A DNA stretch of 64,000 bases, taken from IMG/VR virus record IMGVR_UViG_3300045988_154277. The stretch is one strand, 5' to 3'. This stretch comes from a virus. Shown piece by piece: positions 639 to 63,347 of this stretch. The notes beneath the pieces are model-generated. The model worked only from the letters and a program-made list of their open reading frames with translations, ran no database searches and had not been told where the DNA came from. Position 1 is the first letter of the stretch, and each line of letters opens with the position of its first letter. The translations under genes were made by a program, and so were the position numbers.

Positions 639-765
639 AGTTCTCACCTCCTTCCTAAAGTTGCTGGACGAAGGTTTGTATTGAGGTGTTGTATGGTGAT
701 TACAACTCGTCCTATTGTAATCACCAGGATGTTATCAGGTGATCTCAGCTAGAACCTATTCTCAA

Positions 766-778
766 CTAGTTATATATG
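766..778 (-). promoter_or_regulatory. copy of recurrent promoter-like motif (sense: GCATATATAACTAG)
   Basis: matches the TATATAT(A/T)AC family found upstream of at least 9 minus-strand genes. Confidence 0.4.
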
Positions 779-795
779 CTTAAAAATACGTTCAA

Positions 796-827
796 CTACA
801 CTGGATAGTGCGCACTATCCAGTGTAG
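796..827. terminator. perfect 32-nt palindrome hairpin
   Basis: ctacactggatagtgcgcactatccagtgtag; T-rich flank on the minus strand. Confidence 0.5.
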
Positions 828-855
828 TTGCTATGTTTGTTGTCGATATATAAGT

Positions 856-890
856 GTATACTGGAGTAGATTACCTCTACTCCAGTATAC
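856..890 (-). terminator. hairpin terminator after gene 896-2149
   Basis: gtatactggagtag-attacc-ctactccagtatac, 14-bp perfect stem directly after the stop at 896. Confidence 0.55.
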
Positions 891-895
891 AACAT

Positions 896-2149
896 TTACG
901 CTCTCTTGAAGGTAAGCAAGATGAAGTACAGGATCACAGCTGTACGGATCGATACCTTAGTAGCATCTCTTTTGTACTTCGTGTGTTCGTGGACGAACTT
1001 GTCCATACTGTACTTGATCGTGATGATGTCAGGATCATCAACACGAGAAGACTTAAATGCATTTCGGATCATCTCCAAGATCTGCATATTACTCCTCATG
1101 TCGACTTTCTTCAACACACAATACCGATAACATTTCTGGATGATCTCGGTAACCAAGATCCGAAATCCAACGAAGTATTTCTGACCTTTGATCGTCACAA
1201 CTTTGTCTTCTTCGTGGTGTCGATACTGCAGTGTAGCCATATCAGAAAATGCGATCAAAGCTTCTTCCAACATAGGAGGAGTGATCGTCTTCGTCAAAGC
1301 ACAGACTGACTTGATATCCAGATAACTCAAGAACGAACTGGTGTTCGTTACAACACCACAGACATTGATGATGGTGTTATCCAAAGTAGCACGGAGGGCT
1401 TTTAACTCACGTTCTCCTTCTGCATTCAACTGAGTCGCATCAGAACTCTTGATAATCACACCTTTGGCTACATTCTCATAGTAGTCGTGAGATACATTCG
1501 AGATCTTGGATGCCAACCGAGTGTGTAGGTCAGAGATCACATAGAGTACATTGGAATCAGGAGAGAACGTATGAAGCGTGTGATTGTGGACACTTTTCTC
1601 TGCTAATATCGTCTCACAGTGATCGTAGATGATCGCTCTCCATGTAGGAGTCTCTGGTCTCTTGATGTCGTTCTTCGCCGACAGTCGATCGATCGTCGCT
1701 TGCATGACATCGTGGTTCACTCCTTTGGGGAAGAACGTTTGGACTTTCCCTGTGAAGAACTTGTAGTTCAACAGAGCTAAGATCCAGAACGCACCATCAT
1801 GTTGCATCTGAGGATTCAGGTTGCTCTTCAGATAGCAGTACACCAACCAGATACAGAGGATGTTGAAATCATTCCCTGTAACATGGAACGACTTATTCAC
1901 TGAAACACAATCGTGGATCGCCCTGTTGAAATCAGGGCGATAGATGTTGAAGTTGTCGAACATGAACGCAGCATCCTTCGGTAAGAAGTATGCTCTGGAT
2001 ACAGCTAGCATGGGAGTATTGAACGCCGCAGGGTTCTGATCTCTCAGTTCGTACATCTGAACATATCGGATCAACGATCTCGTCTGAGCGATCGTCGGCT
2101 GGATGTCGAACTTATCCATGAAGAGCTGTTTAAGAGTAAGAGGTTGCAT
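896..2149 (-). CDS. hypothetical protein (417 aa) downstream of terminase
   Basis: long ORF; GAAGGAGT RBS; start ATG overlaps the terL stop by spacing (tcat at 2147-2153). Confidence 0.7.
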   Translation of the reverse strand: MQPLTLKQLFMDKFDIQPTIAQTRSLIRYVQMYELRDQNPAAFNTPMLAVSRAYFLPKDAAFMFDNFNIYRPDFNRAIHDCVSVNKSFHVTGNDFNILCIWLVYCYLKSNLNPQMQHDGAFWILALLNYKFFTGKVQTFFPKGVNHDVMQATIDRLSAKNDIKRPETPTWRAIIYDHCETILAEKSVHNHTLHTFSPDSNVLYVISDLHTRLASKISNVSHDYYENVAKGVIIKSSDATQLNAEGERELKALRATLDNTIINVCGVVTNTSSFLSYLDIKSVCALTKTITPPMLEEALIAFSDMATLQYRHHEEDKVVTIKGQKYFVGFRILVTEIIQKCYRYCVLKKVDMRSNMQILEMIRNAFKSSRVDDPDIITIKYSMDKFVHEHTKYKRDATKVSIRTAVILYFILLTFKRA

Positions 2150-2150
2150 A

Positions 2151-5244: not shown

Positions 5245-5793
5245 TCACCGACGTTTGTCGGAGACTTTGCGGCGAGGAGCCTCTTTCGCACCTCTGTGTT
5301 CTTTGATCCGAACGTTGTGTTCCTTGTCGTCCTCTTTGGACTGACGAGGCTTGTGCGCCTGTTTGGGCTTACTGTCGTGTTTCTTGACCGTTTCCCAATC
5401 ATCGTCCGATTCGTGTTCTTTGATGATATTCATGGTCTTTTCCACAAACGCATCGGACACCACATAGTTGAGATCGATCAGCTTCGTCTCTTTCATGATG
5501 GTGAGCTTCTTGCTGGATAGAGGAAGTTCATTGATGGTTGCACGGAGTACTTTGACCTGATCTTGCAAGAAGTCTTTCAGCTTGTCCTTGACGGGATGTT
5601 TCCTCCCAACGACCTCTTTGTAGTCCCTCAGGATGATCTGAAGAACCCACTTCTCCTGTCCAAGAAGTTTATCGTTCATAGCGGTCTGCACCTCTTCGTG
5701 CTTATTGCAAGCACGACCTTCACCGTACCGTTTGCTGGTACGGCGAGTGCACGATTCACCACAGATTACACAGGTAAACGTCTGAAATCCCAT
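5245..5793 (-). CDS. hypothetical protein; N-terminal zinc finger (CVICGESC...C..H) and basic C-terminal tail
   Basis: start refined to MGFQTF (ATG at 5793) with TTAAGGAGAAAACAAATG RBS; lysine/arginine-rich C-terminus. Confidence 0.6.
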   Translation of the reverse strand: MGFQTFTCVICGESCTRRTSKRYGEGRACNKHEEVQTAMNDKLLGQEKWVLQIILRDYKEVVGRKHPVKDKLKDFLQDQVKVLRATINELPLSSKKLTIMKETKLIDLNYVVSDAFVEKTMNIIKEHESDDDWETVKKHDSKPKQAHKPRQSKEDDKEHNVRIKEHRGAKEAPRRKVSDKRR

Positions 5794-5855: not shown

Positions 5856-5873
5856 GTTATATATACTTGAAAA
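5856..5873 (-). promoter_or_regulatory. promoter-like motif (sense: TTTCAAGTATATATAAC)
   Basis: recurrent motif about 65 nt upstream of the ATG of gene 5245-5793, directly after a terminator. Confidence 0.5.
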
Positions 5874-5879
5874 TAGGTC

Positions 5880-5909
5880 GACCTACAGGGTGATATCACC
5901 CTGTAGGTC
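5880..5909 (-). terminator. rho-independent terminator
   Basis: gacctacagggtga-ta-tcaccctgtaggtc perfect palindrome after the stop at 5919. Confidence 0.6.
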
Positions 5910-9506: not shown

Positions 9507-9639
9507 TGAATGTGGTAGGACTCGAACCTACACCAGTTTTCACTGACTTGTCATTCTCTGAGCTTGAGGTATATATCTCAGGATTCTCCAAGCGACCGAG
9601 GGACCAGCTCGGGACTCTAACCAGTTGAGTTACACATTC
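9507..9639 (-). tRNA. tRNA-like gene with a 62-nt insertion (canonical acceptor, D, anticodon arm with GGU [Thr?] and T arm)
   Basis: 5' GAATGTG..D-arm..CCGAG-CTGGTCC-CTCGG, then 62 extra nt, then GTAGG-TTCGAGT-CCTAC-CACATTC-A; the insert carries a GTATATAT promoter-like motif in the opposite orientation. Confidence 0.4.
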
Positions 9640-9640: not shown

Positions 9641-10139
9641 TGGTGGAGGTGGCGGGTTATTCTCCCGCGTCTTACCTTACTTCAGATCAGTTTCGTTCAC
9701 AAGCTTAGTTTCGCTTATATTAGTCACACAGTCGATGTACGAAACTTGAGGAATCTCAGAGTGCTACTCTGTATCATTCTAACTGTACTGTGTCAAGTCA
9801 CTTCATGTGGGCGCTACTCCACTTCATGGATGCTCCCAGTAGTGTACCATCCTGGGCTACATCGACAACCAATCTGTGCGCATATTCTAACGATTCACGA
9901 TTGGTGAACCTCATTAGAACCCGAACCAAAGAAACGAGAGCGAATCATCGAGTCTTTGAAATTGCACTACTAGTCTCGTTATCGGAGTCCGAGACGTTCG
10001 TGGCCATCACGCAGCAGCGAGAAGGGCTTCTTCAGTGTTGTTGACACTTATTGTTTTGATCAGCTTTTATACAGGCCAACTGATCAACCTGTGCTTGCAA
10101 CTTAATCTTCCACAAAGCAATCGAAATAAAATCACCCCC
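9641..10139 (-). ncRNA. ssrA: tmRNA (ssrA-like), about 499 nt
   Basis: 5' GGGGGTGATTTTATTTCGATTGC versus E. coli GGGGCUGAUUCUGGAUUCGACGG; 3' GACGCGGGAGAATAACCCGCCACCTCCACCA versus E. coli GACGCGGGUUCAACUCCCGCCAGCUCCACCA; tag frame ...NNTEEALLAAA then TGA, starting about 90-95 nt from the 5' end. Confidence 0.75.
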
Positions 10140-10506: not shown

Positions 10507-10833
10507 TTACACGAACGACCAAGCTGTCGTGAAGAACGAAATGTCATGTCTTGGATCATCGATCGATACGAACAACACTCCATCCGAACCGAGACTGATC
10601 AGACGAATCGGAACCTGGTTGATGATCGCTGTTTGGATATCATGAAAGTTGTTCGGATAAGTCATCTCAGCTTTTGAATCTTGTTTGTTGTAGATTGTAA
10701 GATTCAACCGATGGAGATCTTTGTTGGTGTCCTGAAGGGTCATTTCCAACAGGATTGCTTGTTCTTTTTCACGTGTGATCGCACTTGTAGTGCACTGCTT
10801 GATGTGTCCATCCATCAATGGTTCATGTTCCAT
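10507..10833 (-). CDS. hypothetical protein (108 aa)
   Basis: ORF downstream of a promoter motif. Confidence 0.55.
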   Translation of the reverse strand: MEHEPLMDGHIKQCTTSAITREKEQAILLEMTLQDTNKDLHRLNLTIYNKQDSKAEMTYPNNFHDIQTAIINQVPIRLISLGSDGVLFVSIDDPRHDISFFTTAWSFV

Positions 10834-10902: not shown

Positions 10903-10920
10903 GTAATATATAGCCAAAAC
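10903..10920 (-). promoter_or_regulatory. promoter-like motif (sense: TTTTGGCTATATATTACG)
   Basis: recurrent motif about 70 nt upstream of gene 10507-10833. Confidence 0.5.
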
Positions 10921-11010
10921 ATCATTGAAAAAAAGGTGGAGGAGTTGAACCTCCCTGTCGGATAGTGCAGTCCGACCCATCACCGGATGGTTATACACTC
11001 TCGTGTTCGT

Positions 11011-14586: not shown

Positions 14587-15330
14587 TTAGAAGCACTTAT
14601 AGTACTCATTGAACTGCATCTTGGGATGCAACTCATACCGGTCTACATAATCCGGTTCAGCAAGTGTCCCAGGAACTCCGTTCGGACGTTCATACCGGAA
14701 CCGATAGATCGTCCGCCGATACGCATCGACGACATCGAGCGTATCACCCATTTTTACACCTCTGGAGATCATCAGATCCGTCCAAATCGCCAGGAGAGCA
14801 TCTCCTGCTTTGCATGCGATGTAAGCCTCACGGAGAGTCATGTTCGTACCAGGGACTTGCTCCTGGAAGAACTTGACCGGATCCAGCTTGATCTCACACT
14901 TATCTTCCGTGACCTCTTTCACAAGATCCAGATAAGGTTCACTATCAGCCTTACCTTCGATCTGCTGATAAGGAAGATAACTTCCCATGATCTTCCCTTT
15001 GATGATCGAACCAACTTCCAGTCCATTCATCGAGATAACCAGAGAGTTCTCTTTGGGGATGTTGCAGAACTTCTTCAACATGGAGAGGAATATACGGTAG
15101 TTGAGTCTGGCGTACAACGGACTCGTATAGGGGACAGTATACTTGGTTTTCAGTTCAGTGATCAGATCGATCAAGCTGATGTAATCGTGGGATGAGATGG
15201 TGACATTCCCATCTTTGTCCAGTCCGTTAAACAGAGCTCGTGTGATGTTCTGTGTGTTGTAAACACACAGACTCAGCTGTCCAACTTGGTTACGGATGTT
15301 GTCGGTTTCACGTTTGATTGTGTTTTCCAT
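14587..15330 (-). CDS. hypothetical protein (247 aa) with a roughly 230-nt structured leader
   Basis: AAAGGATCAGAAGATG RBS; promoter motif 235 nt upstream. Confidence 0.6.
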   Translation of the reverse strand: MENTIKRETDNIRNQVGQLSLCVYNTQNITRALFNGLDKDGNVTISSHDYISLIDLITELKTKYTVPYTSPLYARLNYRIFLSMLKKFCNIPKENSLVISMNGLEVGSIIKGKIMGSYLPYQQIEGKADSEPYLDLVKEVTEDKCEIKLDPVKFFQEQVPGTNMTLREAYIACKAGDALLAIWTDLMISRGVKMGDTLDVVDAYRRTIYRFRYERPNGVPGTLAEPDYVDRYELHPKMQFNEYYKCF

Positions 15331-15467
15331 CTTCTGATCCTTTCGATTTGTTGAGATGGTTGAACATTGAGATCAGTTATCCTTTCGATATACCGATCTA
15401 TGACGATGTGTTCTATCTTAGCGTTACCCGAGGTGAACCACGTGGAGGTTTAGAACATCTCACCTCT

Positions 15468-15510
15468 GATGGGAAGGACTCTAGGAGGTAGGTATTAAAT
15501 CCTTCCCATC
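15468..15510 (-). promoter_or_regulatory. large hairpin in the 5' leader of gene 14587-15330
   Basis: gatgggaagga-(21-nt loop containing TAGGAGGTAGG)-tccttcccatc. Confidence 0.3.
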
Positions 15511-15561
15511 AGGTACCATATCACAACACCCAAAGACTCTTGGTACCGATATTACTCCAAA

Positions 15562-15580
15562 GGTAATATATACTTGAAAC
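15562..15580 (-). promoter_or_regulatory. promoter-like motif (sense: GTTTCAAGTATATATTACC)
   Basis: recurrent motif. Confidence 0.5.
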
Positions 15581-20584: not shown

Positions 20585-21184
20585 TCACCTCCCTGTGGAT
20601 CCGAATCCTCCAGAACCTCTATCGGAATCTGTATCCAACGATTCAAACTCTTCTTTGTCGACAGAGATCAAATGAGTGATCGGTTGATAGAGGAACACCA
20701 ACTGGGCGATACGATCTCCACGTTTGATCTGATAAGGTTCTTGTTTCGTATTGAACATGATCACACAGATCTCTCCTTTGTACGACTGATCGATCGTACC
20801 AGGGCTGTTCAGAACGAAAAGACCTTGTTTCAGAGCAAGTCCTGATCTGGATCTCACATCTGCCAGCATGTGATACTGAACGATATCTAGTCCCATAGAA
20901 CGATCGACCTTGGGATGCATACAGATGTGTACCCCAGTATGCACAAGTGTTACACTCATCGGAGCAAGGGTGATATCCTCTTTACTTCGCAGATCATATC
21001 CAGCATCATCATCGTGAGCTTTCGATGGGATGAGATCCTCACAACCTTCATCCATTAAAAGGTGTACATTCTGGGAGATGTGATATGAACACTGTGGCTC
21101 ATTCCAATTGACTGTTATGAGATTGTCGGCTTCCGATGGATATGTCATCTCATTAAAATTTGGCTGTTTGGGTTCTTCAGACAT
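20585..21184 (-). CDS. dut: dUTPase with about 60-aa N-terminal extension
   Basis: motifs AGYDL, GTIDQSYKGEI, RIAQLV typical of trimeric dUTPase. Confidence 0.85.
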   Translation of the reverse strand: MSEEPKQPNFNEMTYPSEADNLITVNWNEPQCSYHISQNVHLLMDEGCEDLIPSKAHDDDAGYDLRSKEDITLAPMSVTLVHTGVHICMHPKVDRSMGLDIVQYHMLADVRSRSGLALKQGLFVLNSPGTIDQSYKGEICVIMFNTKQEPYQIKRGDRIAQLVFLYQPITHLISVDKEEFESLDTDSDRGSGGFGSTGR

Positions 21185-31815: not shown

Positions 31816-31898
31816 AGTAATTCCTCCTTATGGCTGTTCTTGGGTTGTTAATGTTTTGTGCACAAATCATCACACGACCCACTCGTACGATGATTCTA

Positions 31899-31917
31899 TT
31901 TAGTTATATATAGGTGA
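31899..31917 (-). promoter_or_regulatory. promoter-like motif (sense: CACCTATATATAACTAAA)
   Basis: recurrent motif about 88 nt upstream of the ATG at 31815. Confidence 0.5.
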
Positions 31918-31924
31918 GACTCTG

Positions 31925-39419: not shown

Positions 39420-39896
39420 TCAATCTTCATCCGGATCTGAAGTATCGAGTGTTCTGTTGTTGAGGTCGGTTAGCACGATATCGACCGTATTCGTTTTGGT
39501 TGGATGATTGAACTCGAACGCTAACGTTTTCAAAGGCATACCGAGTACCCTGCAGCAGAACTCCATAAGCCTCTTGAACGTGATATGTCCTCGTCTCATC
39601 ATCTTGAGCATATTGCTCCTCTGTGTGGATGCTTGTTGCGGATGCTGACCGAGAACTTTAATCGCATACATCTTGTATCTCTCTTGGAAATACGGTTCTG
39701 TGATGCGACTGTCCTGACACAACTTGACCGCAACCTGATCCAACGGATAGGTGCTGTAGAAGATCGGGTCATTCTCCGTAAAGATCAGCTCCCCTTGTTC
39801 TTTCAGAGCTTCCAACTCGTCGATCTCCTGTCTCCGTGCATACTTGTTTACAAACATGTCCCGGATCCTCGAGTTCGCTTGATCCGGCTTTTCCAT
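39420..39896 (-). CDS. hypothetical protein (158 aa)
   Basis: ORF. Confidence 0.55.
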   Translation of the reverse strand: MEKPDQANSRIRDMFVNKYARRQEIDELEALKEQGELIFTENDPIFYSTYPLDQVAVKLCQDSRITEPYFQERYKMYAIKVLGQHPQQASTQRSNMLKMMRRGHITFKRLMEFCCRVLGMPLKTLAFEFNHPTKTNTVDIVLTDLNNRTLDTSDPDED

Positions 39897-39900: not shown

Positions 39901-40662
39901 TCACCTCCTTGTTCGATGTTGACTGATATGTGTGTTGATGATCGTCTGGTGAAGGAGTAACATGCTACCCAGCATCTTGTTAGCTTGCGACTTCACCTTC
40001 GGATCTTGTTCGATCTTCTTGGTGACGACAGCCAGATAGATACTGGCTACATACCGCACACTGTCCAAGGCGTACTCCAGATACTTCTTACCTACATATC
40101 GTTCATCTTTCGCCGTTGTTGAGATGATCAACTGTAGTTTACGAAGTAGATCCAACGGATCATACAACATGATAGACATACGAGCGTAACGATCGCTGCT
40201 TAATGCAAATGATTGGATCACACTGATCAACGTTGAACTCCGGTTGGGATGAAGTGGATACCACTTCGTCTCCATCAACGCGAACAGTGGCATCATCAAC
40301 ATCAAGTTGATCCCACACTCGTGCTTCTCAATACGTAATATATACGTGAGAATCTGATAGACTAACGGGGGAGCTGGCATCTCCCCCAAGATCAGAGCGT
40401 CCACCAGTTGCCTGGTGGAACGTTCTTCCAAGAACCGCATACGAACACATCCGATCCGGAACAACTGTCCTGCCATGAACAGCTCCTCAGGAGAGGCACC
40501 ACCTCCCTTGTTGTAAGGATCTCGAACGATACAAGATACTTTCGCAAGGTACTTGAAGAATGGTTCTAACTCTACGAGAGGAGGATCATCCTTATTTGTA
40601 GTATCGATCAACCAGGCTTGGAACCTGGCGATCTCAGATGTGTCGAGATCACATCGTTTCAC
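39901..40662 (-). CDS. hypothetical protein (253 aa)
   Basis: ORF; start overlaps the stop of the topoisomerase ORF. Confidence 0.55.
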   Translation of the reverse strand: MKRCDLDTSEIARFQAWLIDTTNKDDPPLVELEPFFKYLAKVSCIVRDPYNKGGGASPEELFMAGQLFRIGCVRMRFLEERSTRQLVDALILGEMPAPPLVYQILTYILRIEKHECGINLMLMMPLFALMETKWYPLHPNRSSTLISVIQSFALSSDRYARMSIMLYDPLDLLRKLQLIISTTAKDERYVGKKYLEYALDSVRYVASIYLAVVTKKIEQDPKVKSQANKMLGSMLLLHQTIINTHISQHRTRR

Positions 40663-43600
40663 AGGACCTCCTGTTCTGGTATTTGGTTCAAGATACTCTT
40701 CACATCACCAAGAACCAACGCTTTACGAGGTGCGGTATCCACGCCCATCATGTCGTAGATACGATTCACATCCCCGATACTCGTGATCGTGGTGAATGTG
40801 CGTGTTGCAGGATCCAAACAGGTGTACTTCAACTGAGGACCACTGCATTCACCGAGACCTTTCAGACGGTGAACAGGATAGTGTTCGTCGAGTTTCTGGA
40901 GGATCCGATAGAGCTGCATGAACGTCATGGGTGCTCGTTCCATCTCCGTTGTTGTTTTGGTTGTCACCAGGAGATCGAACAACTCCCAATGAACCATCTC
41001 CAACTCAGGAAGGATGTAAGAACGGATCTCTTGAACCAAGTTCTGCATCGGAACACTGATCTCGATCCCTGCTACCGACAACAAGAGTGTCTTCGCTCCA
41101 GGATGATACGAACAATCATCCAGTTTCAGGATGTTCTTCACCATCTTGGTATCCAACTTGTACAAACTCAGATAGTCCACACAGTGAACCAACTGTTCCA
41201 GTACCATCGGATCGATCACCAACTTGTTCGCAGAACGGGTGATGATCCCACCGATCCTCTTGGTCAGGTAGATGAAATCCCGATACTGTTCTCCTTTCAG
41301 TTGACACAGATTCTTGGTCATCTGAGAGTAGAGTTCCAGATTGAAGAACTTCTCATAGATCTTGACACGGGCATCGTTCAGGGCTTTCTGGTCTCTCAAG
41401 AAGAGAGCTTTATCCCGACTTTCCATCACGTAGAGCGGAGGATTCGCCATGAACACACGTCCGCTTGCCAGGATCAAAGGATTGATCTTCAACAATGCAG
41501 TGATCACAAGGTCGTTGATGTGATAACCGTCAGGGTCAGCATCTGCCAGGATCCCGATCCTTGCGAACCGCAATCTGCTCAGATCTTGATCTCTCGGTCC
41601 AACCCCCAGGATCTTCACAAGATCTTGGTAGACTTTGTTCGCTCTAAGATCCTCCACATTAGCAGTGTGTGCATTGATCGGTTTGCCTTTCAACTTGAGT
41701 ACTGCTTGGAAGTGTTTGAACCTCTCCTGAACCACGAAGTCTCCTGCGCTGTTACCCTCAGTGATGAACAGTTCCGTGATGGTCGGATCCGTCACACGTG
41801 CAGGCACATAACAACCTTCATTGTTCATGTCGTAAGCAAGGTTCTTCGAGTTGGAACTCAAGTTCATACTCTTATTGCTGAACTGAGCGAACTTCTTCAC
41901 AAGATCATCGTGGATGATGTTGAACATCTGTTCCCACACCCCATCCTGGATCGTATCGAAGTATGCATTCAGCATCTGACCGTAGATCTTCTCGAAATCG
42001 AGATCCTTGAATCCATGCTTCGTCTGACCTTCGTATGTTGCTCCTTTGTAAAACGCTCTGATATATCCGTAGAACGGAATATTGTAGAAGCGTTCGAAGA
42101 ATGTCATGATCTCATCATCGTCCTGATCGAGATATGGAGTCAATCGTTCTCTGATCTTCTCAAAGAAGACACTGAGATGTGAAGACTCTTTATCTTTGAT
42201 CTGTGTATCATTCACAGTGGCGATATAACCATTCTGACGATCACAGTTCTTGACCAGATGAACACTGATGTCACAGGCAAGCAACTTTGGGGATGTCACC
42301 TCTTGTTTCACCTCGAGATTCCAGAGAGGTTGCTCTGTGATATTGAATTTACCACGAACGTAATCTTCAGCTGAGATCATCATAGGTGTTTCGTAGATCA
42401 ATGTACCATGCTGTTTCTGGAAGTAATTCCACATGTCTTCATATGGTTTCTTGAACCAACTGTCAGGAAGAAGTTTATCTACCTGATAGATGTGGAACTT
42501 GGTATTGGTCTTGAATGCTCCGATGTAATCCACCAACTCGAATAGACGTTGTACTCCTTCCGTTGGGAAGAATGTATGAGTGTATCTCAAGATCGTGTCA
42601 TCTGGTTGATGTACTACGATAGTACCAACGGTCTCGCGAATACTATCAATTGGCTTCATCACTTCAGACTTCACCACGTTTCCTCGGTTGAGAGTCAACC
42701 CAGCGAAACCATCCAGTCTCTTTGTGATGGCCACAAACCGTTCTGAGATGGCGTTACTTGAAACAGCACCGACACCGAACTGTCCGATACTGTATTTATA
42801 AGCAGCACTATCTGCTTTGCCAGTTGAAAACGGTATCGTGAAAACATTCCGTAACTTCTCACAAGGGATACCTCTGCCGTGATCCAGTACAGCAATCTGG
42901 TAGGTAGTATCTCCCTTGAACAATATCACGTTGATGTGATAGATCCGATTTGGGTCGATGCTCTCGTCAACCGAGTTATCGATATACTCTTTTACGCACT
43001 GTATGTTAGCGTTTAGATTCGTCTTACCCATGAGCATACCCGCATTTCTACGGGTATGCTCCATGAAGGTGAATTCTCTAATGTCACTCGATGTGTAACT
43101 GTCCGTCATTTGTGATTCCTCCATAGTCGTACATGATAGCGATTGTACGTCGTTTTTAACTCGGTCAATATCTGGTAAATTCTCTATACCAAACATAACC
43201 ATAAGCTCATCTGTGGTGTACTTGTGTGTTGCGATTTTTGCACGTAGATCTTGTAGTTCTTCCTTGGTAAGAGGAGTTCTATTGTTTCTATCTGCAGCAT
43301 CATGTGCAGCTTTTAATGTCTTTGCACTCTCTCCCTTTCGGTACGGTACTTCATCTGTAGTGATGCATCGATAAATCATAGCTTCCGATTTATGCATCTT
43401 AGCGCTTAGTGTATTATACGTCCATCCGAGTTTATACATATCTCTTATGTAATAAACCTCGTCTTTGGAAAGAACATCACGTATTTTAACAGTCTTCCTA
43501 GTGCCCCGGACGTTCCTTACAGGATCACCCGGATCTAACGGATAAGTGATCCCATCCAATGCATTCGAAATGGTGTGTCGATCTACATTAAAGTACTCTG

Positions 43601-44264
43601 CTAGTTTCCAAATCTTCCACTTCTCCTTCCCATACAGTCGACGGATCTCTTTTACTTGATCACGATTTAACTTGCTATGATTTGAATTATAGTGTTTATC
43701 ACGATAACGATCAATATCAATAGCTTTATCAGATGTTGTCCGATAGTACGTCTCATTTACAGCAGTTGATATCAACGAACCCTGTACATTGAATTCTTCT
43801 GCAAGATCTTTAATGTGTTCTCCGGACAACACACGAATTTTAAGTTCAGTAACTTGATCGTTTGTTAACTTCGCCTGTGGGTGGGCTTCACCAGACAGCA
43901 TCAGACCCATACGGACAGCGTGATGTTTGTTCTCACTAGATGATACCCATTCCAGATTGGACACATCGTTGTTTTGAGGATTTCCATCAATGTGATTTAC
44001 TTCTCTAAGATTGGCAGGATTTGGAAGAAAAGTCCATGCAACCAAGCGATGTGGGCTTGTTAGGTGACGTGACCCATCTCGTTTCACAAACACACATTTC
44101 AAACGATTATGTTTGTCTGTAAAGTATTTGAGATCCGGTATAACAAACCCTCGTTTTTTAACATACTCAGGAGAATTAGCACCTGGTTTAATACGAACAT
44201 GACCGGTTGTACTAGCTTCATAAATTCCTTCATACCCTTTTACATCTTTCCAGTATTCATTCAT
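40659..44264 (-). CDS. in-frame fusion ORF: N-terminal HNH homing endonuclease (about 385 aa, nt about 43110-44264) plus GyrB-like DNA topoisomerase II ATPase/Toprim subunit (T4 gp39/gp60-like, about 815 aa, nt 40659-43109)
   Basis: HNH part: NUMOD4-like MNEYWKDVKGYEGIYEASTTGHVR, HNH_3 motif HIDGNPQNNDVSNLEW, NUMOD1-like helix-turn-helix repeats. Topo part: SDIREFTFMEHTRRNAGMLMG (T4 gp39 SDIEHIKKRSGMYIG), IDNSVDE, GHKL motif LDHGRGIP, Toprim KGLGE. Internal GGAGGAATCACAAATG RBS before Met405; no stop codon between the two parts. Confidence 0.75.
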   Translation of the reverse strand: MNEYWKDVKGYEGIYEASTTGHVRIKPGANSPEYVKKRGFVIPDLKYFTDKHNRLKCVFVKRDGSRHLTSPHRLVAWTFLPNPANLREVNHIDGNPQNNDVSNLEWVSSSENKHHAVRMGLMLSGEAHPQAKLTNDQVTELKIRVLSGEHIKDLAEEFNVQGSLISTAVNETYYRTTSDKAIDIDRYRDKHYNSNHSKLNRDQVKEIRRLYGKEKWKIWKLAEYFNVDRHTISNALDGITYPLDPGDPVRNVRGTRKTVKIRDVLSKDEVYYIRDMYKLGWTYNTLSAKMHKSEAMIYRCITTDEVPYRKGESAKTLKAAHDAADRNNRTPLTKEELQDLRAKIATHKYTTDELMVMFGIENLPDIDRVKNDVQSLSCTTMEESQMTDSYTSSDIREFTFMEHTRRNAGMLMGKTNLNANIQCVKEYIDNSVDESIDPNRIYHINVILFKGDTTYQIAVLDHGRGIPCEKLRNVFTIPFSTGKADSAAYKYSIGQFGVGAVSSNAISERFVAITKRLDGFAGLTLNRGNVVKSEVMKPIDSIRETVGTIVVHQPDDTILRYTHTFFPTEGVQRLFELVDYIGAFKTNTKFHIYQVDKLLPDSWFKKPYEDMWNYFQKQHGTLIYETPMMISAEDYVRGKFNITEQPLWNLEVKQEVTSPKLLACDISVHLVKNCDRQNGYIATVNDTQIKDKESSHLSVFFEKIRERLTPYLDQDDDEIMTFFERFYNIPFYGYIRAFYKGATYEGQTKHGFKDLDFEKIYGQMLNAYFDTIQDGVWEQMFNIIHDDLVKKFAQFSNKSMNLSSNSKNLAYDMNNEGCYVPARVTDPTITELFITEGNSAGDFVVQERFKHFQAVLKLKGKPINAHTANVEDLRANKVYQDLVKILGVGPRDQDLSRLRFARIGILADADPDGYHINDLVITALLKINPLILASGRVFMANPPLYVMESRDKALFLRDQKALNDARVKIYEKFFNLELYSQMTKNLCQLKGEQYRDFIYLTKRIGGIITRSANKLVIDPMVLEQLVHCVDYLSLYKLDTKMVKNILKLDDCSYHPGAKTLLLSVAGIEISVPMQNLVQEIRSYILPELEMVHWELFDLLVTTKTTTEMERAPMTFMQLYRILQKLDEHYPVHRLKGLGECSGPQLKYTCLDPATRTFTTITSIGDVNRIYDMMGVDTAPRKALVLGDVKSILNQIPEQEVL

Positions 44265-44294
44265 AATAACAACTCCAGTTAATAGTGTTTTCTT

Positions 44295-44314
44295 AGAGTT
44301 ATATATACGTGAAG
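44295..44314 (-). promoter_or_regulatory. promoter-like motif (sense: CTTCACGTATATATAACTCT)
   Basis: recurrent motif about 40 nt upstream of the MNEYW start. Confidence 0.5.
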
Positions 44315-44372
44315 TTACCACGAAACAAAAAGAGAAGGTATGGTGGATTTTGTATCCACCATACCTTGTGTG

Positions 44373-45398
44373 TTAGAACGTTCTACTTCCGTATTCGATC
44401 ACATTCCATTTCTTCATAAGTTCTCTCAACGAGTACTTATTCGATGCGATATCCTCCCTTAACAGCATCAGTTCTTCTTTCGTGAATGGGACTCTATTAC
44501 GAGTCAATTGACTATTATGTTCTTCGATCAATTTGCGAACAGAATCACCATTCGAAAATGGAACCTCATCCGTAAATAACGCACGTTGCAACACACTGTA
44601 GTTACCAATATCAACCCAATGTATGATGCTTGATATACGTGCACCTCTACGATACGCATCCCGTATCTTAATAACTGTATCTTCAGACACAAGCTTAGTT
44701 AACGGGATGTGTGCGTTAGGAGATTTCAAGAATCGAATCGGTGTATCCGGTGTGATATCGTACGTTATACCACCAAGAAGATGTGACACTGTAGGAGCAT
44801 TCACATTCATTAGAGTAGATATAGCCGTTACACTATACCCGTGATCGAAGTAAAGAGATCTGATTCTACGTACATCTTCGTTTGTGAAAATGGAGCTTTG
44901 GTGATCTACTCCTGATTGTTTCACATGCAGTTTGGTACCCTCTTTACCCTCAAAACATGCACGCTGTTTCAATATGATCCCATTCACACCACTCAGACCG
45001 ATATTGAACTCTTCAGCAAGAGACTTCATCGATTCTCCTTTATGATAGCGTAAATAGATCTCGATGTCTTTAGAGCGACTGACCATTGTCATACCAGAAT
45101 CAGAAGGATCGTTAGACCAACTGAGATTGGATAACTGACAATTACTGTGATCGTAATCCTTATATCGGACATACAAACCATCACTACCAACAAAGTGACG
45201 TAGCACCAATCTCGATACGGGAGCGGTCTTCCATTCACCTTTGTCATTAACCATGTTCACAAACATGGACAAGCAGTTGTGATTCTTATGCTGCGGTAAA
45301 ATGCGATCTCCCTTTTTACGATGTCTCCTAACACGTCCGAGATTAGACACCTCGTACTTCGAGAATCCTTCTATAGACACCCAACGTTCTTCTTCCAT
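44373..45398 (-). CDS. HNH-family homing endonuclease paralog (341 aa), catalytic motif possibly degenerate
   Basis: WVSIEGFSKYEVSNLGRVRR (NUMOD4-like); helix-turn-helix repeats; C-terminus paralogous to the HNH part of the downstream fusion (..TDEVPF..G.S...L...H.......R.P.TKEEL..LR..IA..KY...EL). Confidence 0.7.
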   Translation of the reverse strand: MEEERWVSIEGFSKYEVSNLGRVRRHRKKGDRILPQHKNHNCLSMFVNMVNDKGEWKTAPVSRLVLRHFVGSDGLYVRYKDYDHSNCQLSNLSWSNDPSDSGMTMVSRSKDIEIYLRYHKGESMKSLAEEFNIGLSGVNGIILKQRACFEGKEGTKLHVKQSGVDHQSSIFTNEDVRRIRSLYFDHGYSVTAISTLMNVNAPTVSHLLGGITYDITPDTPIRFLKSPNAHIPLTKLVSEDTVIKIRDAYRRGARISSIIHWVDIGNYSVLQRALFTDEVPFSNGDSVRKLIEEHNSQLTRNRVPFTKEELMLLREDIASNKYSLRELMKKWNVIEYGSRTF

Positions 45399-45441: not shown

Positions 45442-45460
45442 GAGTAATATATACTTCAAA
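45442..45460 (-). promoter_or_regulatory. promoter-like motif (sense: TTTGAAGTATATATTACTC)
   Basis: recurrent motif about 45 nt upstream of the ATG at 45398. Confidence 0.5.
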
Positions 45461-46953: not shown

Positions 46954-48606
46954 TTAGTTCAAAACGAACTTGTTGAGATCATCGATCTGATAAGTTGAGA
47001 TCTTCGTACCATGCATGCTCTTCAGAGCATCCGTGGTGAAGGTCGATGTGATATCCACTGCATCCAATGCAAGATGCTTCGCATTCTTCTTCGCATAGAT
47101 GTCGCCCATGCACATGTAACAGAGTCCATGTTGGGCTTGACAATACATCGGAGAACGCACCAAACATGTCTTACCGACGAACTTCTCCATGTTCTGTTCT
47201 GTAAGAAGAACCCAGTTCGAACCATCTTGGATATAGGAACCAAGATAACGTCCGATCTTGTACTTCGAGAAATCCACAGTAAGTCCACGTGTGGTGTGAC
47301 AGTCCTGTTCTGATACGGTAAGGTCCTGAAGAACACGGGTGATGCCTTTGGTTAGTGCACCGCCGAGTTTCGTCTGGTCACCACGGTTGAACGAACCTTT
47401 ACGGGTCTCGTTCGCCATAGCAGGCATCGTCTCTGCGGTCATCCCTTCGGACAGAGAGTTCGGAATAAACACGAAGTTCCCAGTTGTCTTGGAGAACTCT
47501 TCCACACCACCGACCGTCAGATACATCTTCTTACGGGAGATGTTGAAGGGTTTGTCACCGAGCGGCCCATAGAATCGCATCACTTCATCATCTTTGAGAT
47601 AGTTCTTATCCATCGCGATCAAGGTATTCTCGATCTCCATGATGACGTTCGGATCGTTCAACTTATCCTTGTACTTCTCCATCAACTCTTGTTTCACTTT
47701 CCTCACATTCGGATCTGTGGTAAGTGATTTACGAGTATAAGTCGGTACACAGAGTTCAGTGAAGTGTCCGATGAAGTAGAGATCGTTCACATATTGCTTA
47801 TATGCGGATACCGGGATAGAACCGTCCAACATACCTTTGGCAACGATCGTATCGATATAACCGAGATCAAATACGGAGTTCTGATAAGAGATCTTGTCTT
47901 GGAATGGATGAACCAGAAGAAGGTAGTTCAATAAGAACCGACCTACGGTGGTAATCATCTCTTCCTTGCAGTTGATGATCTCACCGGGATTCAGTTGGAA
48001 CGTATCGATCTCACCGAATGCTCTCTGGATCCCGTTGTCCAGGTAGTTCAATGTGAACGAATATGTCTCCTGATCGATATCCGAGACATACACCAGACAG
48101 GACTGACTGCTACCCACAACGGATGCCAAGAACACATCTCCTTCTTGCAAAACACATTTCTGGAAGTGTGTTGCGTTGTAATTCGCAGAGGTGTAGTAAT
48201 CGAAGAGCTCTTGGTTCGTCTTGTTGTAGAGGTCTTTGCTGAACTGATCTGCTTCTTCTTTCTTCTCTGGAGAGAGAGCAAGGTAGTTCCTATACTGGAA
48301 CAGAAGATGGAAAAGACTATCGTTGAACGGATACACCAGTGCGATTTGTCGCATCGCGATCTGTTTCAAAACTTCATCGTCTGTGATATCTTGCTCTTGC
48401 AGAGGAATATACACCGCATCTTCCGGAGGTGTCTTCAATGTAACACGAACAGAATGACGTTCCGGTGTGATCGCTTCGCTCTCATACAGAGGGAAAACAG
48501 GACGTCCACCAACCTGTGTCATGATGTCGATCAAAAATGCACGTTCTAACAGACGTCTCTGGTACTTGATCAAAAACTCTTTCTTATGGATCGGAAGTTC
48601 CATCAC
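46954..48606 (-). CDS. multisubunit RNA polymerase beta' subunit, C-terminal fragment (trigger-loop region) with phage-specific N-terminal domain
   Basis: [31 protein letters not shown] like E. coli beta' [82 protein letters not shown] like [58 protein letters not shown]. Confidence 0.8.
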   Translation of the reverse strand: [550 protein letters not shown]

Positions 48607-50233: not shown

Positions 50234-52090
50234 TTACATCTGTCGGAACTGTGATTCCGTCACGATCTGGATCCCGTAGCGTCTGGCTTTCACCAGTTTC
50301 GTACTTTCATCCTCTTGTTCTTCATCCGGAACAACGAGTAATGAGAGATCTTTTGTGACAGCAGGTACTGGTTGATAACCTTTGGATCTGGCATAAGCTT
50401 CCAACTCAGATCTTGGGGCACTCATTTTACCTGTGAAACAGATCGTCATGTCGAAGTTCTGACCAACACTGTTGAGATTGGTGCAGAGCATCAGACAGAG
50501 AGCCAGATTCTGAACATTCTCAGAATAGGACAACCATCTCACAAGGGACAATCCTGTTTCACCAAACGATTGAAACTTCTCTAAAGCGTGTTCCGTTGAA
50601 AGCGTTGTAAGATCTTCGATCGAACAAACGGTCAACAGCATCGCTGCGTTAGCTTTGCTGATCCTCGGGATCCCTAACGCTGACAGCAGCATCGCAGGTG
50701 TTGCTGTCCGAAGAGCGTTCTGGATCGAAGCATACAACTTTGTCGCTACCTTAGGTGATACGTCCGCGTAAGAACATAGTCCTTCCAAGGAGATAGACAG
50801 AAGTTGATGCAACTGCAACACCTTGTTGGATACCAGGTTCATAAGTACTACCTTCCCGAAACCATCCAGCTTCAGCTCCTTCGCTGCTTTGCGAAGGATC
50901 GCCAATGCAACACCAGGACAATCAGGGTTGGTGCAAACCAACTCTACATCTTCCTGATGAGTCGGATGTCCACACGATGGGCAGGTATGTGGTATCATCA
51001 GTTCACCTTGGTTACGGACATGATCTTCCACACAGATGTGAGGAACAACATCACCCGCTCGTTCCACCTTGACGATATCTCCGAGTCTGAAATCATTCTT
51101 GATCACATACGCCAGGTTGAACAACGATGCTTGCTGTATCGTGACATTCCCGATCTTCACAGGATCGATGATGCCTTTCGGAGTGATACTCCGCATCCCA
51201 ACATTCCACTCGATCCCACGTAAGGTAGAAGTCTGAGACTCATTGGCGAACTTGAACGCCATCATCCCTCTTGGATGGTGTTGTGTTGCACCAAGTTCTT
51301 GAATCTTGGATATATCACCAAGTTTGATCACCATCCCATCCGTCGGATAGTTTAGTTCTTCCACATCCAAGACAAGTTTATCCCACTCTTCTGGATCCTC
51401 CAACATATTCAACGTCATGATCGTTGAATAGAAGGTGTAATCCACGAATGTCAGGATCTTCTTGCCTTTCAGATCAGGAAGTGGTTCTTTGGATGCCAGG
51501 ATGCCCGCAACCGTATTCCTCTGTGTATTATATTTTTCACCATTCTGTTTCAGGATCTTACCAGAGAGGAAGTACTCTTCGAAGTCCTCATCTGTGATGA
51601 TGATCTCACCATAGAACGGTGTGTTCAGAAGAAGCAACTGTATTGCTTTGTTAGGATGTCTCATCGCCTGTAACAAAACAGTTGAAGTTGTCTTTACTTC
51701 GATCAGAGGCAACTTGCTAGTGATATCCTCTCCGACATGTCCATCTCCTCTGGTGCTCAGTTGCCAACCACGAGTTGTGTAGACCAGTTTACCTGCGATC
51801 CCATCATACTTCGGTTGCACTACGAACGTGCTGTCTTCTCGTCCAACACTCTTGCACCACTTGACGATCTCTTCGTGCGTGTAGCGTTTGTCCAGAGAGA
51901 GCATCGGTGGATTGTGGATCACAGAGCCTTTCTCTCCTCCGATATAGGTGAGTCTTGGATCATCAGGATCCAAGACACGAAGTTGTTCGATCAACTTATC
52001 ATACTCCTGATCGGAGATGATGGGTTGGTGATCGGTCCAATATTTCACATTGGCTTCATCGATCTTCTTCCGTAAAGTGTCAATGTCCAT
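50234..52090 (-). CDS. ligA: NAD-dependent DNA ligase (LigA-like)
   Basis: adenylation KxDG motif VVQPKYDGIAG; Zn-finger CPSCGHP...CTNPDCP; N-terminal NAD-binding-like region; AAGGAG RBS. Confidence 0.85.
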   Translation of the reverse strand: MDIDTLRKKIDEANVKYWTDHQPIISDQEYDKLIEQLRVLDPDDPRLTYIGGEKGSVIHNPPMLSLDKRYTHEEIVKWCKSVGREDSTFVVQPKYDGIAGKLVYTTRGWQLSTRGDGHVGEDITSKLPLIEVKTTSTVLLQAMRHPNKAIQLLLLNTPFYGEIIITDEDFEEYFLSGKILKQNGEKYNTQRNTVAGILASKEPLPDLKGKKILTFVDYTFYSTIMTLNMLEDPEEWDKLVLDVEELNYPTDGMVIKLGDISKIQELGATQHHPRGMMAFKFANESQTSTLRGIEWNVGMRSITPKGIIDPVKIGNVTIQQASLFNLAYVIKNDFRLGDIVKVERAGDVVPHICVEDHVRNQGELMIPHTCPSCGHPTHQEDVELVCTNPDCPGVALAILRKAAKELKLDGFGKVVLMNLVSNKVLQLHQLLSISLEGLCSYADVSPKVATKLYASIQNALRTATPAMLLSALGIPRISKANAAMLLTVCSIEDLTTLSTEHALEKFQSFGETGLSLVRWLSYSENVQNLALCLMLCTNLNSVGQNFDMTICFTGKMSAPRSELEAYARSKGYQPVPAVTKDLSLLVVPDEEQEDESTKLVKARRYGIQIVTESQFRQM

Positions 52091-52142: not shown

Positions 52143-52162
52143 GTTGTAATATATACGTAAAG
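52143..52162 (-). promoter_or_regulatory. promoter-like motif (sense: TTTACGTATATATTACAAC)
   Basis: recurrent motif about 55 nt upstream of the ligase ATG. Confidence 0.5.
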
Positions 52163-52208
52163 CATAGTTGAGTATACTGGTAAGTGGATACCAGTATACT
52201 CAGGAAGA

Positions 52209-60770: not shown

Positions 60771-61265
60771 TTACCATTCTGGTTGTTTACTTGCTAATAC
60801 CTCTACGTTCGAAGAACGAACGTAGTACTTGCCTTGGCGTTGACGGATGGACAGCGTCATCTTGTAACGTAATTTGGACTCCACCTCAAACGAGTTGGAC
60901 TCTCGCCCTTTGGCCATCACCTCCGGTGCGTAATCGATCCATTTTCTCTCACATGCGATGTACACGATACACGCACCTGTCCATGACGTGGCTGTTGTAG
61001 TCGTATCTTGGATCGAGATCGATACTTTCGGAGTAGTATCACGAGATTTATCATCATGATACTTAGGATCTTTCACCATCTCGTTGATCCAACTGTATAA
61101 CCATTGTAAAATCTGATCCAGAGATGTGTTTTCAATGGTAACGTCAGGATACAGAGATGGTAGGTCTCTGCTTCTTTGTACGACATGGTTGATCCGTTCG
61201 TGAAGTTCAGACCGAACATGTCGTGTATAGCGATACCGCTCTTGTTCTAGTTTCTTAGTGATCAT
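60771..61265 (-). CDS. hypothetical protein (164 aa)
   Basis: ORF. Confidence 0.55.
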   Translation of the reverse strand: MITKKLEQERYRYTRHVRSELHERINHVVQRSRDLPSLYPDVTIENTSLDQILQWLYSWINEMVKDPKYHDDKSRDTTPKVSISIQDTTTTATSWTGACIVYIACERKWIDYAPEVMAKGRESNSFEVESKLRYKMTLSIRQRQGKYYVRSSNVEVLASKQPEW

Positions 61266-61456
61266 ACTTCATCCTCCTTCTTGAAGAACGTATAGTGAAC
61301 ACCATAGACGATGTACGTTCCGATATAAGTACCGACCAGTTGATAGTAGATCCGACACACATCAGAACGTTGTTCTGCTACACCATACGTGATCACGATA
61401 TCGACATAGACCTCTTGTCGATCAACGGTAACAGGGTCTAATACTTCGAACTTCAT
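61262..61456 (-). CDS. small hypothetical protein (64 aa), ATGA-coupled
   Basis: start/stop overlap with the downstream gene. Confidence 0.45.
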   Translation of the reverse strand: MKFEVLDPVTVDRQEVYVDIVITYGVAEQRSDVCRIYYQLVGTYIGTYIVYGVHYTFFKKEDEV

Positions 61457-61614
61457 ATCGGGTAGTTTCTCTTTTTATACGGATGGTGTTGACCGTGGTG
61501 TTCAACACATCTTAGATTTTGATGATTTTAACATGAAGTCATCTAGAGTGTGATACACCCCTGATATAACAAGGATGTTGTTGCTCTAGATGGTTAAATA
61601 TAAGGTTCTGTGCT

Positions 61615-62226
61615 CTACTGATCACAGGTGTTCTTAGAGAGGGTAAGATCCTCCTGTTGGATCTGTCGATAAATATACCGTAAGATGCGATAACATGCCT
61701 CACCGCGTTCGGTCAGATGGGATGACTGGATGGTACCTACATGATCGGTGATCCCAGCAGCATGTAAGAACTGCAAGATCAGTTCACAACCATCCAAAAG
61801 ATCGAGGTACAAGATACCGGTATGATCACATCGATGGTAACTATGAGAGCTGATATGAACCGTAACAGCATGGTTCGGATCACAGAACCTGATCCATAGA
61901 TGTCTGTTGTGCAGTCGTCGGATGATCATGTATAGAAGTTCATCGGTACCATTACCATAATAACATCCACACATCCCGAACGACTTATGAACGTATCGGA
62001 TCACATCGACATAGTGGTAGATGTCCATATCACCATGTCGTACGGGATCATAGATCGACAAGATGTCACGAACGATGTTCTTGGGCAGTATCACCCTGCC
62101 CTCTCGCATCGCAGACAAGAACGAAGGGAACCTATGTTCCGTATCCAGAAGAACAGACTCCGGTACAGGAACCTCAGCATACTCATAAAGAGGAAGTATC
62201 TCTTGGTTGTAAAGATCGTTAGACAT
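61615..62226 (-). CDS. hypothetical protein (203 aa)
   Basis: ORF. Confidence 0.55.
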   Translation of the reverse strand: MSNDLYNQEILPLYEYAEVPVPESVLLDTEHRFPSFLSAMREGRVILPKNIVRDILSIYDPVRHGDMDIYHYVDVIRYVHKSFGMCGCYYGNGTDELLYMIIRRLHNRHLWIRFCDPNHAVTVHISSHSYHRCDHTGILYLDLLDGCELILQFLHAAGITDHVGTIQSSHLTERGEACYRILRYIYRQIQQEDLTLSKNTCDQ

Positions 62227-62240
62227 AAACGGTTATCTCC

Positions 62241-62849
62241 TTATCGGTTGTGATGCCAATGTTTCACATGTTGTGGTAGATCTTGTTCTTTGGTATAGAT
62301 TTTGCTTAAGTAGCTATATTTGTAAATAGCGTTCTTAAAGTGTTCGATCGACATCTGATCTCGTTCTAGTATCATCCTGTTGCACTCAGCACTGCGGTAT
62401 TCGACCAATCCAGGAAGATATACTCCGATCGTATTACACCAGTGACATTCTAACACTTCTCCTATGGTGATAAAGCTTTTACATACACTACCATCCACCC
62501 ATAAGGCGAGATGGTAGTGTTGATGTGTACTATCGTTGCGTTCTCTTACCCATACGTAAGAAGGATGAGTGAACGCTATCCCTCGTAGGAATAATTCCAT
62601 CGTATTGCAGAAACAAGTGTTATCATTCACAGCCTCCTGGTAAAAGAATTGAGGGAACCTTATAGTGAAGGTTCCAAATAGAGTTGATTTCCTCCTATCT
62701 AGAATACGCTCTGTCAATCGTATTCCGTATTCAAGGATATTGAGATAATGCCCCATCTCATCTGTAGTTCGTACTGGAGATTGGTAAAGAGGCAGTTGAT
62801 CTCCGTTATAAGGGTAATAAGGAATTACCCATTTCTTGTATCGGTACAT
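62241..62849 (-). CDS. hypothetical protein (202 aa)
   Basis: ORF. Confidence 0.55.
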   Translation of the reverse strand: MYRYKKWVIPYYPYNGDQLPLYQSPVRTTDEMGHYLNILEYGIRLTERILDRRKSTLFGTFTIRFPQFFYQEAVNDNTCFCNTMELFLRGIAFTHPSYVWVRERNDSTHQHYHLALWVDGSVCKSFITIGEVLECHWCNTIGVYLPGLVEYRSAECNRMILERDQMSIEHFKNAIYKYSYLSKIYTKEQDLPQHVKHWHHNR

Positions 62850-63295
62850 ATCGTACAGCTCCTTTCATTAATGTTGGTTCTCTATGTTGTGATGCACCCT
62901 TCGTCAGGCTCAGGGACATCGATGACTACGTTCGCTAGGTGTCTTGGAGGACACTACGCTCTCTTCGTTGCTCTTTTATACGCTTATGATGTGCATATAG
63001 AGAGACTGTGATATGGAACTAACGTTGTTCCTTCACTGGTGATCTACTAACGTAGATCTAAGACGTTACGGTGTTGTGTCTCTCTATATGCTTCTGTTGT
63101 TAGATCTTCATTGTACTTATCGATGAATGAAGTACGGATTATGAATGGTATCTTAACTGTAGCTACATATGGTTGGGTTATATAGTTACTACCATAATAC
63201 CTGGTTAAGATTTGAGGGTAAGTTGAGGGTAAAATAACGATGGGATAAATCGTCATATGACTATTATATTTACTCTACTAGATCCCATCTATCAA

Positions 63296-63316
63296 CAAGT
63301 AATATATACGTGAAAT
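63296..63316 (-). promoter_or_regulatory. promoter-like motif (sense: TTTCACGTATATATTACTTG)
   Basis: recurrent motif after a terminator; precedes a 450-nt region with few ORFs. Confidence 0.5.
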
Positions 63317-63347
63317 AGACTTCAGTTACACTAAAAGAGTAAAAGAA

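Follow-up and report, generated by a model that had tools for sequence, protein, structure and literature searches.

A recurrent 17-nucleotide motif as the probable early promoter of a phiKZ-like, nucleus-forming jumbo phage known from metagenomes

The stretch of viral DNA analysed here (IMG/VR record IMGVR_UViG_3300045988_154277; 64,000 nucleotides, hereafter the window) carries a recurrent 17-nucleotide (nt) motif, TTTCAMGTATATATWAC, which a position weight matrix (PWM) scan places at ten sites, all on the minus strand. This is the gene-bearing strand, with 73 of the 81 open reading frames (ORFs) of a greedy gene model, and all ten copies are co-oriented with it. A megablast search of 20 kb against GenBank phages returned no match, and the phage is known from metagenomes, where related contigs measure 160-361 kb. 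Its terminase and several virion proteins match PHIKZ025/032/098/099/101 of phage phiKZ, and the split beta' genes claimed in a preliminary description, made from the sequence alone, are present as one PHIKZ080-like and one PHIKZ055-like subunit gene of multisubunit RNA polymerases (RNAPs). The copies, the units that they lead and the genes on which the argument turns are as follows.

769-785, minus strand: copy 1, TTTTAAGCATATATAAC; preceded by a 17-bp terminator hairpin (830-793), which stops 7 nt short of it; target, the small ORF 468-647.
5856-5872, minus strand: copy 2, TTTCAAGTATATATAAC; also 7 nt past the end of a hairpin, here of 13 bp (5909-5880); target, an ATG supported by a Shine-Dalgarno (SD) sequence, 63 nt further down; terminators 5235-5209 and 4339-4304 close the unit ahead of the terminase gene.
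10903-10919, minus strand: copy 3, TTTTGGCTATATATTAC; the weakest, with a leave-one-out score of 15.1; follows a hairpin and T-run; target, ORF 10507-10833, then the transfer-messenger RNA (tmRNA) and tRNA cluster.
15563-15579, minus strand: copy 4, TTTCAAGTATATATTAC; target, gene 14587-15330, reached after a leader of 233 nt and closed by terminator 14572-14546.
31903-31919, minus strand: copy 5, TCTCACCTATATATAAC; 88 nt upstream of the predicted chimallin gene, with the gene for a beta'-N-like subunit of the non-virion RNAP (nvRNAP) next.
40335-40351, minus strand: copy 6, TCTCACGTATATATTAC; strong, inside the gene for a 253-amino-acid protein (39901-40662); target, gene 39420-39896, then terminator 39382-39353.
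44298-44314, minus strand: copy 7, CTTCACGTATATATAAC; 20 nt downstream of a 14-bp hairpin (44367-44335); target, an HNH-topoisomerase II ORF.
45444-45460, minus strand: copy 8, TTTGAAGTATATATTAC; a 15-bp hairpin lies upstream; target, HNH endonuclease gene 44373-45398, a one-gene unit ending at terminator 44367-44335.
52146-52162, minus strand: copy 9, CTTTACGTATATATTAC; preceded by a 14-bp hairpin (52202-52169), which stops 6 nt short of it; target, the NAD-dependent DNA ligase gene 50234-52090, alone, then terminator 50227-50192.
63299-63315, minus strand: copy 10, TTTCACGTATATATTAC; follows a hairpin and T-run; target, a run of small ORFan genes from 63256 downwards.
30232-31815, minus strand: predicted homolog of chimallin, the phage-nucleus shell protein; 527 amino acids, recognised by fold only; first gene behind copy 5.
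28983-30134, minus strand: nvRNAP beta'-N-like subunit; PHROG 2987, PHIKZ055 homolog, E 3e-25.
46954-48606, minus strand: beta'-C-like subunit of the virion RNAP (vRNAP); PHROG 2962, PHIKZ080 homolog, 31% identity, E 3e-54.

The motif far exceeds chance expectation. Its core, GTATATATWAC (W, A or T), which is invariant or nearly so across the ten copies, occurs seven times as an exact match, on the minus strand only, compared with 0.05 expected from dinucleotide-preserving shuffles, and the full 17-mer with up to two mismatches occurs nine times, again on the minus strand only, compared with 0.02. Leave-one-out PWM scores of the ten sites range from 15.1 to 27.9, while the best match elsewhere, both strands considered, scores 14.1 and the best on the plus strand 12.9; the score distribution is bimodal. 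The preliminary description had proposed comparing intergenic with coding frequencies, and these are clearly unequal, with nine of the ten copies falling within non-coding DNA, which makes up 12.6% of the window (binomial P = 7e-8). Words of the motif are the top-enriched 8-mers of intergenic DNA; the same de novo k-mer enrichment yielded no second promoter-like motif, and a search of the remaining intergenic regions of the window for weaker copies found none.

Placement relative to genes is equally regular. From the final C of the motif to an SD-supported start codon the distance is 34-131 nt, with a single case of 233 nt; for copy 10 the automated search gave no SD-supported start, and the ORF start at 63256 lies 43 nt downstream. 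The final C is mostly followed by N4-TGA, with A at +7 in eight of the ten copies, and in seven of the ten a perfect hairpin of 9-17 bp ends approximately 6-30 nt upstream. The preliminary description, which had listed at least nine copies oriented with downstream minus-strand genes and often set directly after a terminator, thus described a real element, and its coordinates were essentially right except for the first copy, given as 766-778 and now placed at 769-785, and the fifth, now at 31903-31919. Its list was also incomplete, as the strong copy at 40335-40351 was overlooked because it lies inside a gene.

Terminator-like hairpins are 1.6- to 2.5-fold enriched in the window, and at three sites they approach the motif very closely. 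The hairpins 793-830, 5880-5909 and 52169-52202, all on the minus strand, end 6-7 nt before the 17-mers that begin at 785, 5872 and 52162, and the motif's T-rich beginning, its -20 block, therefore doubles as the T-run of the terminator. A stem base that contains GTATAC is common to several hairpins.

The protein encoded behind copy 5 links the motif to nucleus-forming phages. By sequence, the 527-amino-acid ORF found no match in Pfam, PHROGs, BLASTP against PHIKZ054, PDB sequences or phage tblastn. An AlphaFold model built with 23 homologs (pLDDT 81.7, pTM 0.83, disordered tails) was compared with the PDB by Foldseek, and the top nine matches were the chimallins of Goslar, 201phi2-1 and phiPA3 (E 2e-17 to 4e-14, TM approximately 0.60-0.63), the next match having E = 0.03. 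Judged by its modelled fold, the ORF is a divergent chimallin, and its family comprises at least 23 metagenomic clusters. The motif is thus followed by chimallin and then by nvRNAP beta'-N, and a gene of approximately 375-393 amino acids lies upstream and is transcribed divergently. The same order, together with an element of the TATATTAC type followed by N5-TG before chimallin, is shared by phiKZ, 201phi2-1, RAY, RP12, Goslar, Noxifer and KpGz_1, with the variants CATATTAC in RP12 and TATATCAC in Noxifer. The resemblance of the chimallin promoter to that of phiKZ extends past the core, with AAC-TAAATAGAATC in the window and TAC-TAAATTGAATC in phiKZ. The chimallin region has a GC content of 54.5%, compared with approximately 45% in the rest of the window.

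The 5' leader of the chimallin gene has features of its own. It opens with a stem-loop of 7-14 bp (31860-31895, minus strand) approximately 10 nt past the predicted +1. The stem sequence varies among the window and relatives L123, L125, L126, L121 and L127, while the hairpin and its GGG-containing loop are retained in six of seven lineages. Individual folds show this local hairpin, whereas RNAalifold on MAFFT-aligned chimallin leaders missed it owing to misalignment of the stems. A CA-rich leader element (AACAACC-like) was rejected, as it is not specific to motif-led leaders.

The preliminary description took the core of the motif to contain the AT-rich consensus of phiKZ early promoters, and the phiKZ genome (NC_004629) bears this out, since the early promoters there do contain TATATTAC. 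The plus strand has 33 copies of it and the minus strand nine, and 23 of the plus-strand copies share the context TTTAAaCAG-TATATTAC-N5-TG. Seven such copies in the first 50 kb, when set against the annotation, are all intergenic and lie 42-80 nt before starts, including that of PHIKZ054. These counts agree with the 28-32 early promoters in the literature (Ceyssens 2014; PMC8244752, PMC10914365), where phiKZ early promoters are described as an AT-rich element with an extended -10 and, upstream of -19, a run rich in T (PMC8244752), and where the -10, -20 and -30 regions are said to be conserved (PMC11512511, PMC8244752). Aligned without gaps, the window and phiKZ consensus 17-mers are identical at 13 of 17 positions, and the two profiles, compared PWM to PWM over 58 columns, align best at offset 0 with a score of 20.8 against a null of 9.4 ± 1.3 (500 column shuffles, maximum 14.2, none of the 500 reaching 20.8). 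All three blocks (-30, -20 and -10) fall at matching positions, TTTnA and T.AA among them, which supports the reading of the motif as a phiKZ-type early promoter.

The likeness to phiKZ therefore covers a core ending in TATAT(T)AC, equally spaced T-rich -20 and -30 blocks, and TG(A) just downstream; in both phages the copies are co-oriented, intergenic and often placed after terminators, and one precedes chimallin and nvRNAP beta'-N. The two nevertheless differ. The window core is two bases longer at its 5' side (GTATATATwAC compared with cAG-TATATTAC), position 15 accepts A or T, the -20 block reads TTTCA instead of TTTAA, the RNAP subunits are approximately 30% identical and the chimallin is unrecognisable by sequence.

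Related promoters in other phages place the motif in a wider class. An AT-rich core of approximately 10 nt centred near -10 is described for all RNAP-encoding jumbo phages (PMC7598289), and because reviews hold that bioinformatics can recover such a motif from each of them, the motif represents a known kind of promoter. In the Bacillus jumbo phage AR9, the validated early consensus is AAATATATATTAT-(6N)-G+1 (PMC5312081); its TATATATTA(T/C) agrees with the window at nine of ten core positions, the start approximately 6 nt downstream is conserved, and the promoters are read by a virion multisubunit RNAP (PMC5312081). AR9 differs in its uracil-containing DNA, in T instead of C as the last core base, in its upstream blocks and in not forming a nucleus. 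The start sites of phiKZ and phiR1-37 also lie 6 nt downstream of the element (PMC5312081), and the +1 relative to the motif is taken here from statements in that paper. In 201phi2-1, early promoters with conserved -10, -20 and -30 regions carry an AT-rich motif approximately 10 bp upstream of the start site of transcription (TSS) and precede hypothetical early genes (PMC11512511), and TATATTAC-N5-TG lies upstream of its chimallin gene gp105; the difference is that six copies were mapped experimentally there and that conservation differs at some positions (PMC11512511). Promoters of the single-subunit RNAPs of the T7 class and N4 are likewise phage-specific, highly conserved and independent of host sigma factors, and the N4 polymerase is injected too. 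Their enzymes, however, are unrelated, and the promoters, DNA hairpins in N4 and a 23-bp duplex consensus in T7, are without the -30/-20/-10 block structure.

Conservation of the motif was followed in related metagenomic lineages. A syntenic 361-kb contig (45-88% amino acid identity) retains the motif and SD, at 45-75% identity, before the orthologs of 5245-5793, the topoisomerase and the ligase, and its adjacent terminator hairpins are retained in structure but not in sequence. A scan of the sequence collection with the motif gave mostly single chance matches, with multi-match contigs alone being informative. Loci obtained through homologs of the 527-amino-acid protein are independent of the motif, and these chimallin-homolog loci offer the cleanest test because they were not selected by it. 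In each of six such lineages, two matches scoring at least 15 lie on the gene strand and none on the opposite strand; in L119, L123, L125 and L122 both fall at the two orthologous positions. The element stands 77-88 nt upstream of the 527-amino-acid gene in seven of eight lineages, down to approximately 35% identity. The L121/L127 lineage, whose chimallin is approximately 36% identical, has a variant core, …ATATATTTC in place of …ATATATTAC, at the following sites.

L121, 9905-9921: variant core.
L127, 3264-3280 and 8732-8748: variant core at two independent sites.

This variant is consistent with a promoter consensus that drifts together with the phage-encoded polymerase. Overall, the motif persists in phages of Pseudomonas, Erwinia, Ralstonia, Escherichia and Serratia/Klebsiella, as well as in metagenomic lineages.

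The intragenic copy at 40335-40351 encodes T-Y-I-L-R. The surrounding 253-amino-acid gene (39901-40662) is conserved end to end in relatives (approximately 48% identity). In L098, where the gene is approximately 48% identical, ACG TAT ATA TTA CGT is kept at every wobble position; in L123 the first codon, ACG, is replaced by GCG (Ala) and the other four are unchanged; L122 (approximately 35%) largely keeps the intragenic codons; L121 alone has lost the motif. This pattern points to selection on the nucleotide sequence and suggests that the copy is an internal promoter with dual coding. A short way past it, ATG codons occur in frame.

The distribution of copies among genes separates two sets. 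Motif-led units comprise chimallin with nvRNAP beta'-N, the ligase, HNH, HNH-topoisomerase, the tmRNA and tRNAs, and runs of ORFans. The genes for TerL, for virion proteins like PHIKZ032/098/099/101 and for the vRNAP subunit are without a motif copy and stand behind strong terminators, the last of them (46954-48606) behind terminator 50227-50192. In phiKZ, according to PMC4666361, vRNAP genes belong to the middle class and nvRNAP genes to the early class, and the partition in the window fits these classes.

Taken together, we regard it as highly probable that a phiKZ-like, nucleus-forming jumbo phage uses the ten copies as early promoters, which its virion RNAP reads. A multisubunit virion RNAP, with the PHIKZ080 homolog as one of its subunits, would enter the cell with the injected DNA and recognise a promoter of approximately 35 bp, consisting of a -30 T.AA block, a -20 TTTCA block and an AT-rich -10 block, GTATATATwAC, at fixed spacing. 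The alternating TA tract would be melted, and transcription would start 6-7 nt past the final C, at the purine of the conserved T-G-A. The resulting short units would stop at strong intrinsic terminators, three of which would lend their T-run to the -20 block of the next promoter. Chimallin with the nvRNAP subunit, the ligase, topoisomerase II, HNH, the tmRNA/tRNA cluster and small ORFans would be expressed early in this way, and the motif-less virion genes would be transcribed afterwards by the non-virion RNAP.

Several points weigh against this interpretation. The virion RNAP as the reading enzyme, the exact +1 and the early timing are argued by analogy, and the window holds one vRNAP subunit gene only. 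Gene class is an imperfect guide because some nvRNAP genes of 201phi2-1 are not behind early promoters (PMC11512511), and the transcription units are bounded by predicted terminators only. One copy is intragenic (40335-40351) and one is weak (10903), and the spacer between core and TG is mostly N4 in the window compared with N5 in phiKZ. Additionally, the core resembles the -10 hexamer of sigma70 promoters (TATATT), and the host polymerase may make some use of it.

An improbable alternative is that the motif is a phage promoter whose reader is the non-virion RNAP, with a middle or late class, or else both phage polymerases. The enzyme is assigned by analogy only, the ligase, topoisomerase and tRNAs could equally be middle genes, and in 201phi2-1 a tRNA is transcribed from a middle promoter and some genes have unexpected classes (PMC11512511). 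The known nvRNAP motifs, however, are different, namely phiKZ late TATG and middle TACT at approximately -22 and AR9 AACA-N6-TA; of the late elements, as defined for the phiKZ nvRNAP and for AR9 in PMC7598289, neither the TSS-overlapping TATG nor AACA at -11 holds a fixed position in the ten-copy consensus. The window motif fits the early class in all three blocks and is missing from the virion genes, and it stands ahead of chimallin and of an nvRNAP subunit gene, which has to be expressed before the nvRNAP exists. Still less credible is a host-dependent early promoter as in T4, in which the motif would be a strong -10-type element for the sigma70-family RNAP of the host. The core TATATT/TATATA matches TATAAT at four to five of six positions, and weak 9/12 consensus matches overlap two sites (5873-5846, and a second that begins inside the 52146 site). 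In agreement with the preliminary description, which had denied a -35/-10 pair, there is no conserved -35 TTGACA at 16-18 bp from the core, and the conserved upstream TTTCA block abuts the core instead. The invariant 3' A-C is not a sigma70 feature, and sigma70-like sites are depleted relative to shuffles in all three segments scanned (25 vs 41.1 ± 6.5, 21 vs 29.5 ± 5.2 and 27 vs 42.9 ± 7.5). The element is also common to phages of diverse hosts and tracks the phage polymerase, not the host, and phiKZ infection is resistant to rifampicin (PMC4666361).

Functions other than transcription initiation have little in their favour. The motif might be a protein-binding operator, the target of a homing endonuclease or the end of a mobile element, or it might act in the RNA, for example as a processing site, given that two copies stand directly before HNH endonuclease genes, that the core is nearly palindromic (GTATATATAC) and that one copy lies within coding sequence. 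We consider this very doubtful. Eight copies have no endonuclease nearby, orthologous copies occur in relatives that do not carry the HNH insertion, and the motif resembles the experimentally mapped promoters of phiKZ and AR9. Strict gene co-orientation, a position 34-131 nt before starts and placement after terminators also speak against it. A repeat for replication or packaging was considered and rejected.

A broader proposition, which in our judgement has about an even chance of being correct, is that the three-block promoter (-30 T.AA, -20 TTTnA, -10 TATAT(T)AC, TG) is an ancient, near-frozen trait of nucleus-forming jumbo phages, always standing ahead of chimallin and nvRNAP beta'-N. If true, it would provide a sequence-only marker of early genes across these phages, with a span from phiKZ, Goslar, RAY and RP12 to the present lineage and a constraint that persists even inside the coding gene at 40335-40351. 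The promoter specificity ascribed to the virion RNAP and the promoter-chimallin-nvRNAP arrangement are conserved far past the cultured Chimalliviridae. For the uncultivated jumbo phage of the window, which has no close GenBank relative, the motif allows the predicted early regulon to be marked from sequence alone, including chimallin, nvRNAP, replication enzymes, tmRNA/tRNAs and dozens of ORFans as candidate host-takeover factors. Uses are foreseeable in the annotation of metagenomic jumbo phages and in promoter design for phage engineering. No new mechanism is involved, and the added value is modest, consisting of the conservation depth of the promoter and its module, the dual-coded copy and the overlapping terminator-promoter modules.

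Further features accompany the motif-led units. The 233-nt leader after copy 4 (15331-15562, minus strand) contains no ORF of at least 20 amino acids. It includes a 16-bp hairpin, its folding surpasses that of shuffled sequences (z = -2.9), and it may act as a regulatory leader or a small RNA. Between the weak copy at 10903 and the tRNA genes further downstream lies a phage-encoded tmRNA (9641-10139, minus strand) that scores 71.2 bits with Rfam RF00023, for which the gathering score is 47, and that ARAGORN did not call. A tRNA-model match at 9507-9639 (minus strand, 45.9 bits), also absent from the ARAGORN calls, is 133 nt long, far over normal tRNA length, and might represent a tRNA that carries an intron or insertion. 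The terminator upstream of copy 3 (10938-10985, minus strand) resembles the 3' half of a tRNA, with a T-arm-like GGAGGTTCAACTCCTCC then ACC and an anticodon-arm-like hairpin before it; neither ARAGORN nor Rfam called a tRNA here.

Two genes on the minus strand have orthologs in related contigs with Pfam matches, taken from the gene tables of the related loci only: PP-binding for 26787-27086 (acyl-carrier-like, 99 amino acids) and dUTPase/dCTP-deaminase for 20585-21184. Finally, the ORF behind copy 7 (40659-44321, minus strand) runs in frame and stop-free from an HNH/NUMOD4 homing endonuclease (amino acids approximately 17-321) into topoisomerase II (GyrB-like), which retains its own SD and ATG near amino acid 406. 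Relatives L001, L119 and L098 have a topoisomerase of approximately 815 amino acids without this HNH, and the insertion sits exactly between the predicted early promoter and the topoisomerase start.

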